DNA of 10,775 bases, taken from the UHGV virus genome UHGV-1753860; one strand, written 5' to 3'. Below, in pieces: positions 2,348 through 4,898 of the stretch. The position numbers and the translations under genes are program-made. The notes beneath the pieces were generated by a model that was given only the letters and a program-made list of their open reading frames with translations, made no database searches and was not told the origin of the DNA. Numbering within the stretch: position 1 is the first letter of the stretch; each line of letters opens with the position of its first letter. The DNA is from a virus.

Positions 2348-2575
2348 ATGACCCTTTATGAAATATTAAAAATTCAATTTAAAACCAATGCCGCTATTGG
2401 TCGCAGGTTCCCAAAGAAAGGAAGGCCTCGTGGCAGTCAAGGTGTTGGAAAGTGGAAAACGCGAGGTGTTCCGGAGGATGTTGCCATTCTTTGTCATCTG
2501 GATCCGAGCATTCCATATACACACCCAAGTCTAGCGAATACAGAAGATGACAAGCCCACAGGAGACCAACAATGA
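2348..2575 (+). CDS. Small basic hypothetical protein (75 aa) in the position where cro is expected; coding status uncertain
   Basis: ORF in supplied track begins 18 nt after the last operator site and its stop overlaps the next start (ATGA at 2572-2575), but the Shine-Dalgarno is weak and I see no recognisable Cro-type HTH. Confidence 0.25.
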   Translation: MTLYEILKIQFKTNAAIGRRFPKKGRPRGSQGVGKWKTRGVPEDVAILCHLDPSIPYTHPSLANTEDDKPTGDQQ

Positions 2576-3279
2576 ACACCGCAATTTTTAACGGCAAAGC
2601 ATCCATGACCAGCGTTGAGATCGCAGAGCTGGTGGGAAGCCGACCAGATAGTGTTAAGAGAACTATTGAAACACTGGCTAAAAAGGGAATCATCCAATTT
2701 CCACAGACTGTGGAAATTGAGAATAAACAATCACTTGGGCCTCGCCGATTTTCTAGCGCGTATGTATTCGAAGGTGAACGAGGTAAGCGCGACAGCATCA
2801 TTGTCGTCGCACAGCTCTGTCCTGAATTCACAGCTCGCCTGGTAGATCGCTGGCGCGAACTGGAAGAACAGATCCGTAAGCCAATGAGCGAAATCGAAAT
2901 GGTTGCCGCGATGGCTCTTGAAGCCGTTCGCCAACAGAAACGGATCACTCAGGTGGAAGAAAAAGTCAGCCACGTTGCTGAAACAGTCGAGCAAATTAAA
3001 AAGGGCACTATTCGTGAGGGCTATGCCGGATATCGCCAACTGAAAGCAAAAACCGGTTTGTCAGATGATAAATGCCGCAATCTGGTGAACGCCTATCAAA
3101 TTCCTACAGACACACATGAGTTCATGACGCCGGACGGATTGTTGTCACGTCGCGCAATTGTTGCTGTGGAACCGTTTATGGCTGCTTTTTATCGGGTTAT
3201 GGAGGAAGCAGAACCGCGAGGGACTCGCTGGTATCACCCGAAAATGGGGTTATTTCAGGTTATTGGTTGGCAGCGGTGA
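2572..3279 (+). CDS. Rha-family (KilA-N clan) phage regulatory / antirepressor-like protein, 235 aa
   Basis: N-terminus NGKASMTSVEIAELVGSRPDSVKRTIETL and downstream RLVDRWRELEEQI fit the Rha-domain pattern as recalled (S.EIAEL.G.RHDNV.R.I, DRW.ELE). Strong AGGAGA Shine-Dalgarno 6 nt before ATG 2572. Confidence 0.75.
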   Translation: MNTAIFNGKASMTSVEIAELVGSRPDSVKRTIETLAKKGIIQFPQTVEIENKQSLGPRRFSSAYVFEGERGKRDSIIVVAQLCPEFTARLVDRWRELEEQIRKPMSEIEMVAAMALEAVRQQKRITQVEEKVSHVAETVEQIKKGTIREGYAGYRQLKAKTGLSDDKCRNLVNAYQIPTDTHEFMTPDGLLSRRAIVAVEPFMAAFYRVMEEAEPRGTRWYHPKMGLFQVIGWQR

Positions 3280-3302
3280 AAAAAAGCCGGGAGTAACCCG
3301 GC
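3279..3302 (-). terminator. Intrinsic (rho-independent) terminator for leftward transcription
   Basis: Plus strand reads A7 (3279-3285), GCCGGG (3286-3291), loop AGTAA, CCCGGC (3297-3302). On the minus strand this is a 6-bp GC stem followed by U7. No U-tract follows on the plus strand, so it is oriented for leftward transcripts and abuts the stop codon of the 2572-3279 gene. Confidence 0.6.
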
Positions 3303-3365
3303 TCACTCAACATCAATAACGGGGAGCTGTTTCGCATAAAACGGCTCCGAAACATCCAAGAACAG
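3279..3365 (-). ncRNA. Candidate leftward small RNA (OOP-like position), about 85 nt, ending at the 3279-3302 terminator
   Basis: Minus-strand promoter-like hexamers TTGAAA (complement of 3395-3400), 18-nt spacer, TATCTT (complement of 3371-3376) would start transcription near 3364; the transcript would contain the 3323-3348 hairpin and end at the U7 terminator. No protein-coding capacity. Hypothetical. Confidence 0.25.
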
Positions 3366-3409
3366 TTCTAAAGATATCAGCAGCTATATGATCATTTCAA
3401 GACCAAATA

Positions 3410-3438
3410 TTGATTCTGCAATTTCGGGACGTTAAACT
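3410..3438 (+). promoter_or_regulatory. Candidate sigma70 promoter of small-RNA module 1
   Basis: TTGATT (3410-3415), 17-nt spacer, TAAACT (3433-3438). The same arrangement recurs at 4066-4094 inside a 62-nt block that is 60/62 identical by hand alignment. Confidence 0.5.
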
Positions 3439-3444
3439 GTCTCT

Positions 3445-3521
3445 GCACCTTATAAAGCGGGTGCCGGGGGTCGCAGCCCGGAATTGTCAACGGCGATATA
3501 TGACGCGCCAGCGTCTTTTTT
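3445..3521 (+). ncRNA. Candidate small RNA 1 (about 77 nt): conserved 5' block, hairpin, single-stranded seed GUCAACGG, intrinsic terminator
   Basis: Predicted start G3445; hairpin CCGGG/CCCGG (3464-3481); seed GTCAACGG (3486-3493); terminator GACGC-GCCA-GCGTC followed by T6 (3502-3521). Seed is perfectly complementary to CCGTTGAC at 3590-3597 and identical to GTCAACGG at 3669-3676, which overlaps the GGAGG ribosome-binding site of the Rha gene at 3688. Confidence 0.5.
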
Positions 3522-3687
3522 ATCGTCCGCGCTCACGCACGCCAGAATTATGGTGGGCTGGGCAGGGGAGCCGAAAGGCTCGCCGGTCTCCGTTGACGCC
3601 GGTACTGCGAACCCTGTTCAGTCTGCCACCAGTGAGTTTCGCAGCTCCGGTGGTGGAAGTTTTTCACTGTCAACGGAGGCTGCCATC

Positions 3688-4050
3688 ATGGCTACTGTCC
3701 TAACTTCCCCATTCCTAAAAATCGAAGTCGTCAACGGCAAGGCCGTTATTTTCTCCCTGCATGTTGCCTGCCATTTCAAGCGCATGCACCAGAACATCGT
3801 TGACAAAATCGAGTATCTGAACTGCTCACGCGAGTTTTTTACCCGCAATTTCATACCGGGTACTTATCACATCTACGGTGACTCCCTGCGTGGTTATTAC
3901 ATCACCCTTGATGGTCTGATGATGCTTCAGCTTGGGTTAAGTCTGCGCACAATGCGGTACTACGAGAGCTGTATTGAAGCATTCCATGAGGCTGAAACCG
4001 TCCAGGGTCACTCCGCGTTCCGTCGTAATCAACGGGAGGTGCACCTATGA
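3688..4050 (+). CDS. Rha-family phage regulatory protein (short, about 120 aa, Rha domain only)
   Basis: MATVLTSPFLKIEVVNGKAVIFSLHVACHFKRMHQNIVDKIEYL fits the Rha N-terminal pattern. ATG 3688 has GGAGG 9 nt upstream. The supplied track extends the frame to a TTG at 3484, but that start has no ribosome-binding site. Confidence 0.75.
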   Translation: MATVLTSPFLKIEVVNGKAVIFSLHVACHFKRMHQNIVDKIEYLNCSREFFTRNFIPGTYHIYGDSLRGYYITLDGLMMLQLGLSLRTMRYYESCIEAFHEAETVQGHSAFRRNQREVHL

Positions 4051-4898
4051 TCCGCCACCAGCATATTGATTCTGCAATTTCGGGACGTTACACTGTCTCC
4101 GCACCTTATAAAGCGGGTGCCGGGCGTGGAAACCCGAAATTCAATATAGAGCACAACCGCGCTCATGCGGTTTTTTCGTGTCATGAGCATCGTTACGCCC
4201 AAATTATGGTGGGACGTGCAGGGCCAACTTCGGTTGGGCCGGGTTCTATGTTGACCGGTATTTCCACCCCTGTACGTCTCACCACCTATATGGTCGTGGA
4301 AAGCCTTGGTGGTGAGTTCATTGAATTCAACATAGGGGCTGTCACCATGACTACTCTCCCAGCCCAATCTCACCCTGAAATCACGATTATCAATGGTCGC
4401 GTTGTCACCACATCTCTTGCAGTAGCTAATTACTTTACTAAACGGCATGAGCGGGTTTTAGATAGAATTAGAAACCTCGAATGTTCCGCTGAATTTACTG
4501 AACACAATTTTGTGTTAAGTGAATACACCGACGCATCAGGCCGCAAACTCCCTTGTTACCAAATCACCCGCGACGGTTTTGCGTTTCTTGCCATGGGCTT
4601 CACTGGTAAACGTGCTGCCCAGTTCAAAGAGGCATACATCAACGCCTTTAACCAGATGGAGAAGAATTTATCTGGTGCTGACGCGGTTGATATGTCAGCT
4701 GTCGCACGAAACGCCAGAGGCGTATACCTGCATTTGCGTGAAATCCATCAAATCTGGACAAGCCAGCTTTATCCAATGCTTAAGGCCGTTGAATCTCCGC
4801 TGGCTAGCAAACTGTACGACCGTGTTGGTGATGCTGTTTTTGGCGCTGCACTTGTTGATTCCAGGCTGAATGGTTCTGACAAGGAGGTTCGCCCATGA
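4047..4898 (+). CDS. Rha-family phage regulatory protein; start ambiguous between ATG 4047 (long, 283 aa) and ATG 4347 (Rha domain at the N-terminus, 183 aa)
   Basis: Rha motif VVTTSLAVANYFTKRHERVLDRIRNLE begins about 10 residues after M4347, which fits the family architecture. ATG 4047 has a strong GGAGG 7 nt upstream and overlaps the previous stop (ATGA), and the frame is open throughout, so a long isoform or coupled leader translation cannot be excluded. The 4047-4346 stretch also holds the small-RNA module 2 signals. Confidence 0.7.
   Translation: MIRHQHIDSAISGRYTVSAPYKAGAGRGNPKFNIEHNRAHAVFSCHEHRYAQIMVGRAGPTSVGPGSMLTGISTPVRLTTYMVVESLGGEFIEFNIGAVTMTTLPAQSHPEITIINGRVVTTSLAVANYFTKRHERVLDRIRNLECSAEFTEHNFVLSEYTDASGRKLPCYQITRDGFAFLAMGFTGKRAAQFKEAYINAFNQMEKNLSGADAVDMSAVARNARGVYLHLREIHQIWTSQLYPMLKAVESPLASKLYDRVGDAVFGAALVDSRLNGSDKEVRP
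4066..4094 (+). promoter_or_regulatory. Candidate sigma70 promoter of small-RNA module 2
   Basis: TTGATT (4066-4071), 17-nt spacer, TACACT (4089-4094); paralogous to 3410-3438. Confidence 0.45.
4101..4176 (+). ncRNA. Candidate small RNA 2 (about 76 nt): same architecture as small RNA 1 but with seed UCAAUAUAG
   Basis: Predicted start G4101; hairpin CGGG/CCCG (4121-4136); seed TCAATATAG (4141-4149); terminator ACCGC-GCTCAT-GCGGT followed by T6 (4156-4176). Seed pairs with CTATGTTGA at 4246-4254 (8 Watson-Crick pairs plus one G-U) and matches TCAACATAG at 4327-4335 next to the ribosome-binding site of the Rha start at 4347. Confidence 0.45.

Follow-up and report, generated by a model that had tools for sequence, protein, structure and literature searches.

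What controls the Rha/antirepressor-like gene that begins at position 3688 of the UHGV virus genome UHGV-1753860? The window, by which we mean the whole 10,775-nt stretch analyzed here, comes from a lambdoid prophage of E. coli and covers its immunity and early genes. These run from a LexA-like/S24 repressor on the minus strand through a small ORF in the cro position, an Rha/antirepressor-like gene and two RNA modules to DnaC- and DnaB-related replication genes. Each of the two modules precedes an Rha-domain gene. A 1041-nt query spanning both is 99.8% identical to an E. coli chromosome; it was matched in 1295 of 5426 complete E. coli genomes and also in many Stx-converting phages, which carry near-identical modules. 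A preliminary description had read positions 3410-3687 as a three-segment switch, in which a segment B pairs either with A, inside a candidate small RNA, or with A2, at the ribosome-binding site. The coordinates it gave for A, B, A2, the GGAGG, the ATG and the terminator are all correct to the base. Its interpretation was largely right, incomplete, and partly supported by our analysis. The region belongs to an already known class of prophage RNA control module and is not a new riboswitch-like element. Very probably it is a complete IsrK-C4 module of temperate phages, with the layout of P1/P7 immI and of the Gifsy-1 isrK locus and with the P4 immunity system as a relative.

Segment B reads CCGTTGAC (3590-3597), and its reverse complement, GTCAACGG, is the sequence of both A (3486-3493) and A2 (3669-3676); B is thus the exact complement of each. 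A2 overlaps the GGAGG Shine-Dalgarno (SD) at 3675-3679, which lies 8 nt from the ATG. A repeat finder extends the A/B pair to 11 nt at 91% (3486-3496 with 3587-3597) and the B/A2 pair to 10 nt at 100% (3588-3597 with 3669-3678). When 3410-3700 was shuffled with dinucleotides preserved, 8 of 3000 shuffles contained an 8-mer whose reverse complement recurred on either side of it. Three-way compensatory covariation across related modules, described below, is stronger evidence than this shuffle test. The complementarity is confirmed, and it is functional beyond reasonable doubt.

An Rfam search of the window at gathering thresholds returned four RNAs, isrK followed by C4, twice over. In module 1, the isrK model (RF01394) matches at 58.7 bits against a gathering threshold of 50 and is covered from 1 to 77 of 77, terminator included, which makes the candidate small RNA of the preliminary description an isrK-family RNA. 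The terminator itself was recovered by a terminator scan as 3502-3515 plus the T-run. The C4 model (RF01695) matches at 78.8 bits (gathering 45) and is covered from 1 to 87 of 87. The c4-a1b1 motif (RF03163) stays below its gathering threshold of 46.7 bits in the window, with 17.1 bits at 3432-3484 and 25 bits at 4088-4140. We regard the a1-b1 element as functionally equivalent to c4-a1b1, in a sequence subfamily that is captured by isrK instead. The IsrK-type RNA is built from two hairpins, the second of which (hairpin 2) carries a1 in the loop, then a linker that contains b1, and last the intrinsic terminator. In this anatomy, A is the counterpart of b1 in the P1/P7 immI system, B that of b' and A2 that of b2, and A sits in the single-stranded linker. 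The three segments first described are real, but B belongs to the loop of a C4 RNA and is not a free leader segment, and a second triplet, a1/a'/a2, had been overlooked. By homology with the c4 ends annotated in the P1 record, the mature C4-type RNA would span about 3552-3630. All features are listed in Table 1.

Table 1. Features of the two RNA modules and of the gene that follows module 1 (window coordinates).
Feature	Position	Strand	Sequence, basis or energy
Promoter-like site, module 1	3410..3438	+	-35 TTGATT 3410-3415, 17-nt spacer, -10 TAAACT 3433-3438
IsrK-type small RNA (a1-b1 leader RNA)	3445..3521	+	Rfam isrK RF01394
a1, loop of IsrK hairpin 2	3471..3476	+	TCGCAG; complementary to a'; duplex -9.7 kcal/mol
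b1 (= A)	3485..3496	+	TGTCAACGG, then mismatched C, then GA; complementary to b'; -15.4 kcal/mol
Intrinsic terminator of IsrK-type RNA	3502..3521	+	GACGC-GCCA-GCGTC then T6; hairpin -8.3 kcal/mol
C4-type antisense RNA	3546..3633	+	Rfam C4; fold -47.8 kcal/mol, z -4.3
AUG at C4 5' end	3550..3552	+	Counterpart of first AUG of Gifsy-1 orf45
b' (contains B), 12-nt loop of C4 hairpin 2	3587..3598	+	TCTCCGTTGACG; Rfam alignment, duplex, covariation
a', single-stranded junction of C4	3605..3611	+	CTGCGAA; repeat finder, duplex, covariation
a2, first downstream target site in leader	3638..3644	+	TTCGCAG; pairs with a'; -10.0 kcal/mol
Local anti-Shine-Dalgarno	3645..3649	+	CUCCG; pairs with 3674-3677 (CGGA, b2/SD junction) in the leader folded alone
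b2 (contains A2)	3668..3679	+	TGTCAACGGAGG; 3' end = GGAGG 3675-3679; pairs with b'; -18.9 kcal/mol
Regulated gene, Rha/antirepressor-like protein, 120 aa	3688..4050	+	Pfam, PHROG
Module 2, tandem paralogue with other specificities	4063..4349	+	Rfam, repeat finder, duplex energies
Module 2 isrK	4101-4177	+	Rfam 61.6 bits
Module 2 C4	4202-4289	+	Rfam 83 bits
Module 2 upstream sites	a1 4126-4132, b1 4141-4152	+	Complementarity
Module 2 C4 sites	b' 4243-4254, a' 4261-4267	+	Complementarity
Module 2 leader sites	a2 4296-4302, b2 4327-4337, ATG 4347 (second Rha gene)	+	Complementarity

Transcription of module 1 is predicted to start at about G3445. The promoter-like site agrees with the consensus at 8 of 12 positions, which is below the threshold of the promoter scan. 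Similarity between the two modules begins at 3407/4063, and across related modules the sequence diverges upstream of the -35 element, yet a -35/-10 pair is kept at the same spacing. Other promoter variants sit at the same place in related modules, and both Gifsy-1 and P1 have promoters at the equivalent position.

A separate feature was seen on the minus strand, where a promoter-like TTGAAA-18-TATCTT with a TG (3400-3371) is followed by a strong intrinsic terminator at 3304-3284 whose T-run extends to about 3277. To judge from these signals, a minus-strand RNA of about 85 nt could run between them (window 3284-3400). It would end at the 3' end of ORF 2572-3279, in a manner reminiscent of lambda oop RNA, and its one Rfam match was a weak one to sroD (24.5 bits).

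In phage P1, excision of the c4 RNA involves an RNase P step. The c4 antisense RNA, icd and ant of the P1/P7 immI region were reportedly described by Citron and Schuster in 1990. The P1 record (NC_005856) lists, in order, the P2c4/P1c4 promoters, a "putative a1 target site," a "putative b1 target site," the 77-nt c4 RNA, a2, and b2; for b2 the record adds "repression of icd ant translation," and the icd start codon follows 10 nt later. The window repeats this arrangement of promoter, a1, b1, roughly 60 nt, C4 with a' and b', a2, b2 over the ribosome-binding site, roughly 10 nt, start codon, and antirepressor-type gene. The C4 fold is also the same, and scores 68.8 bits in P1 and 78.8 bits in the window. 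The a1-b1 leader of P1 matches c4-a1b1 at 51 bits and, with a terminator-like hairpin, isrK at a sub-threshold 35 bits. Because one leader matches both models, IsrK can be equated with the leader RNA that carries a1 and b1 in the immI layout. Comparative genomics work had described both motifs, c4 and c4-a1b1, in 2010. The window differs from P1/P7 in three respects. Its first gene after b2 encodes an Rha-domain protein, whereas P1 has Icd and then Ant, and no Icd homologue was found downstream of the module. Its a1-b1 RNA scores as isrK (58.7 bits) and not as c4-a1b1 (17.1 bits). Furthermore, its host element is a lambdoid chromosomal prophage, in which the module lies between the cI/cro side and the replication genes and has a tandem duplicate.

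The Gifsy-1 locus, isrK-orf45(STnc1160)-anrP, is another relative, for which the activation mechanism has been published. Rfam scores it at 79 bits for isrK, 69 bits for C4, and 48.1 bits for c4-a1b1. It has an isrK with its own promoter, a C4-like RNA downstream, and all six a and b sites: a1 UUGGCGU, a' ACGCCAA and a2 UUGGCGU; b1 UCACCG, the b' loop UCGGUGAU, and b2 AUCACCGG, which abuts the GGAGG of anrP. The antirepressor-like gene anrP starts 8 nt after b2/SD, and the isrK terminator, at about -8.4 to -8.5 kcal/mol, is close to that of module 1 (-8.3 kcal/mol). When locus position 898 is taken as IsrK +1, the substitutions made by Hershko-Shalev et al. 2016 fall on G28 and G31 in the a1 loop and on C159 and C162 in a', while A107 belongs to the AUG at the C4 5' end, which is the orf45 start (PMC4825925). 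There are also differences: the a and b alleles are not those of the window, the Gifsy-1 module adjoins the late antiterminator Q gene while the window's module lies in the early region, and the orf45 TGA overlaps the anrP ATG, giving translational coupling, whereas the reading frame from AUG 3550 is open into the gene.

In Gifsy-1, the isrK promoter drives the operon and the read-through mRNA is untranslated (280 versus 4 units), and short IsrK supplied in trans raises translation 139-fold and transcription 8-fold (PMC4825925). The substitutions G28A and G31A abolish activation when placed in the trans RNA; in cis, they raise basal translation from 4 units to 93 and 218, an effect that is undone in part by compensatory changes in a' (PMC4825925). 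Cis pairing between IsrK and C4 therefore belongs to the OFF state and not to release. These results sort the claims made for module 1. That terminator read-through yields the Rha mRNA agrees with the homologous Gifsy-1 locus, where such an mRNA is made and is translationally silent (PMC4825925). Release in trans by the terminated small RNA likewise has its published counterpart there (PMC4825925), but our co-folding with IsrK-1 keeps the SD paired. Release by A:B pairing in cis is contradicted by the Gifsy-1 cis mutants, and co-folding here shows none. Except for this in-cis half, the mechanism put forward in the preliminary description is essentially the one published for Gifsy-1 IsrK.

Among related modules, the copies of each site change together. 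A search of viral contigs with the invariant frame of hairpin 2 of IsrK, its loop left unconstrained, gave 120 loci, from which 57 unique modules with a C4 RNA were obtained. These 57 hold 13 b alleles (b' loops) and 8 a alleles (a' junctions) in 22 combinations; each kind covaries three ways, and the two assort independently. In nearly every module, b1 and b2 match the module's own b', and a1 and a2 its own a'. In a first analysis of 53 modules, a 7-nt downstream complement to the own a' was present in every one. For cognate b' pairs, the mean duplex energy is -13.7 kcal/mol with IsrK and -15.4 kcal/mol with the leader, compared with -8.1 and -7.6 kcal/mol for non-cognate pairs, an advantage of about 6-8 kcal/mol. 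In an alignment of 30 modules, compensatory changes occur at 8 of the 12 pairs of the b1:b' helix and at 8 of 12 in b':b2, both sides have changed at 5 of 7 pairs in a1:a', and the C4 stems are 100% paired, with covariation. The covariation score was 0.43 versus 0.16 in shuffles (none of 500 reached 0.43), and it fell to 0.09 or less when the partners were slid. We set aside column-wise covariation for a':a2, as MAFFT puts the leader gap of the two subfamilies in different registers; this pairing was judged instead by per-module best-match searches and duplex energies, where binding of CCAC by GGTGG runs of the leader adds noise to the test of a' against the leader. Three-way matching across modules indicates that all three copies, A included, are under selection to match.

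Several modules depart from the common pattern. One at locus L065 (~11763-12024, minus strand) is a natural recombinant with b1 of the TCAATATAG type and b' and b2 of the TCACCAAAG type. Another, the second module of L118 (4746-5007), has b1 and b' of the CTATGTTGA type but b2 of the TCACCAAAG type, a mismatch that prevents pairing between the loop of its C4 and the module's own Shine-Dalgarno site. In L031, L055, L067 and L070, the C4 AUG lies at +145 and not +106, owing to a 39-nt insertion with a TATAAT between the IsrK terminator and C4. With this insertion, C4 may have a promoter of its own and no longer depend on read-through of the terminator.

What the pairing does once formed is a separate matter, and here P4 immunity provides the main alternative. 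Barquist et al. 2013 write of an "IsrK-C4 immunity system" in P4 and of systems that resemble it in structure in P1, P7, N15 and Salmonella lambdoid prophages. In P4 (seqA - CI RNA/seqB - seqC), likewise, the leader contains a processed structured RNA, and the transcript carries complementary sites both upstream and downstream of it; N15 has a system of similar structure. IsrK and C4 have been called structural homologues of seqA and CI RNA, respectively. The output of P4, however, is premature transcription termination that protects the replication genes, while the downstream site of the window overlaps the SD of an antirepressor-like gene. A C4-like RNA that acts on the nascent a1/b1 and a2/b2 sites might mainly cause termination, at the IsrK terminator or early in the gene, and not a block to initiation. 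The short distance from b1 to the terminator stem (5 nt in module 1, 2 nt in module 2) would suit this, as would a terminator-like hairpin of 6 pairs followed by ATTTTCT on the plus strand at window 3733-3747, 45 nt into the Rha ORF. Against it, b2 lies over the SD and in almost all modules ends at a constant distance of 8-9 nt from the ATG, an arrangement that speaks for translational control; the Gifsy-1 response to IsrK is 139-fold in translation and only 8-fold in transcription, and constitutive STnc1160 did not act as a termination factor there (PMC4825925). We consider termination unlikely to be the main output. The two outputs are not mutually exclusive, a termination output is possible alongside a translational block, and the hairpin at 3733-3747 could cause polarity when translation is blocked.

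Folding predictions bear on a second alternative, in which no separate antisense RNA exists and B is an anti-SD segment that pairs with A (ON) or A2 (OFF) purely in cis, like an attenuator. The read-through RNA (3445-3710) has a minimum free energy (MFE) of -118.9 kcal/mol and pairs 3584-3611 with 3638-3683 in one long cis helix that combines b':b2 and a':a2. The predicted probability that the SD is unpaired is about zero in this RNA, and the same is true of the dimer between processed C4 and the leader, which is 7.4 kcal/mol better than the monomers and has the SD fully paired. Concealment of the SD by B:A2 pairing, as first proposed, is therefore borne out by prediction. Even without the C4 loop, the leader alone is predicted to half-sequester the SD through the CUCCG element. 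The long helix, and the order in which A, B and A2 are transcribed, so that A:B could form first, speak for a cis switch. However, the C4 RNA that holds B in its loop has fully paired, covarying stems, the P1 record gives c4 as a separate 77-nt RNA with the icd/ant mRNA as its target, and breaking the cis a1:a' pairing in Gifsy-1 raises expression and does not lower it (PMC4825925). Furthermore, the cis fold of module 1 breaks the canonical C4 stem, being 9 kcal/mol better than the fold with that stem enforced, but the MFE of module 2 keeps the canonical C4 fold. With the broken stem of module 1 and the limits of nested-structure programs, folding does not settle cis versus trans; taking all the evidence together, we find a purely cis switch improbable.

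Co-folding gave the first proposal a mixed answer in that the SD is hidden in the read-through RNA as expected, but IsrK-1 does not free it. At equilibrium the SD of the mRNA stayed paired when IsrK-1 was present because b':b2 (-18.9 kcal/mol) is stronger than b':b1 (-15.4 kcal/mol), so that for activation IsrK would have to be in excess, have kinetic access or be helped by Hfq. Loop-loop pairing lies outside what nested models can depict, and we did not retain co-folding as a test of IsrK release, as its result is weak evidence either way.

The protein encoded at 3688..4050 matches Pfam Phage_pRha at 30.0 bits (cut-off 29.9), and among PHROG families it hits 995 (190 bits), the Rha-like 518 (54 bits) and antirepressor families. 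The proteins downstream of the modules share the Rha domain and PHROG antirepressor/Rha-like matches, and their antirepressor role is putative. By sequence, the downstream genes are Rha/antirepressor-like, in line with ant of P1 and anrP of Gifsy-1. No stop codon separates AUG 3550 from ATG 3688, with which it shares its frame, as in 52 of the 57 modules. Module 1 has no orf45-type small ORF with a stop overlapping the antirepressor start; with AUG 3550 fused in frame to the gene, the stop/start coupling of Gifsy-1 via orf45 cannot apply unchanged. PGAP annotates window positions 3388-4050 as an "ash family protein" and 4047-4898 as a 283-aa Rha. The N-terminal parts of both proteins are translations of the IsrK and C4 RNA genes, and PHROG profiles 995 and 821 contain the same N-terminal over-extension. 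That the stretch simply encodes protein, as an ash family protein or an Rha N-terminal extension from ATG 3550 or upstream with incidental complementarities, is very hard to credit: it has those annotations and profiles, the frame open through both modules and the reported translation of Gifsy-1 orf45 (PMC4825925) in its favor, but two covariance models exceed their gathering thresholds, compensatory changes act at the RNA level while the a and b alleles rewrite the putative peptide, and the long ORFs, which we rejected as coding evidence, arise by chance in 6-11% of shuffles, while more distant modules have the frame interrupted.

Around the end of the first Rha gene, TCAACGGGAGGTG followed by ATGA (window 4029-4050) supplies a strong Shine-Dalgarno together with a start codon overlapping the gene's stop. 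The TCAACGG at 4029 lies at the SD of ATG 4047 and matches the b allele of module 1; it shows no covariation in other modules. ATG 4047 opens a long ORF that runs through module 2. A further copy of TCAACGG lies at 3731. Both of these extra b-type sites look incidental, as modules with other alleles do not carry their own allele there.

We return to the IsrK-C4 reading. Family membership, anatomy, complementarities, three-way covariation and predicted SD occlusion were observed for the window itself; processing, repression and trans activation would follow by analogy with the homologues in P1 and Gifsy-1. Transcription would start near 3445 from the promoter at 3410-3438, and many transcripts would stop at the terminator at 3502-3521, yielding a 77-nt IsrK-type RNA that displays a1 in a loop and b1 in the linker. 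Read-through would enter the highly structured C4-type RNA, which presents b' in a loop and a' in a junction, and then the leader of the Rha/antirepressor-like gene with the second copies, a2 and b2. The a' and b' sites of C4 would pair with a2 and b2, either within the transcript or after excision as in P1. The b':b2 helix, aided by a':a2, would cover the ribosome-binding site and keep the antirepressor-like gene silent by default. Free IsrK-type RNA, with its mimic sites a1 and b1, would bind a' and b' in trans and leave the mRNA translatable.

Modules 1 and 2 carry different a and b alleles and are orthogonal by duplex energies. Tandem module pairs also occur in L003, L007, L012, L058, L112 and L118. 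It is conceivable, if rather doubtful, that the a and b sites form a combinatorial address code, with at least 13 x 8 alleles in free reassortment and natural recombinants such as the second module of L118, by which the IsrK and C4 RNAs of one prophage would switch the antirepressor genes of co-resident prophages or of a neighboring tandem module on or off. If so, lambdoid prophages would be joined in an RNA-only network of cross-immunity and coupled induction, and tandem orthogonal modules would be two independently addressable inputs.

The finding opens no new question; the architecture was already known in 1990, and the activation mechanism has been in print since 2016. For annotation, it means that protein calls (an "ash family protein," an over-long Rha) routinely displace the RNA genes and have now entered protein family profiles. 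For the biology of these phages, it accounts for how the antirepressor-like gene of an E. coli lambdoid prophage is probably silenced and released, with a bearing on prophage induction that includes the Stx-converting phages with near-identical modules.
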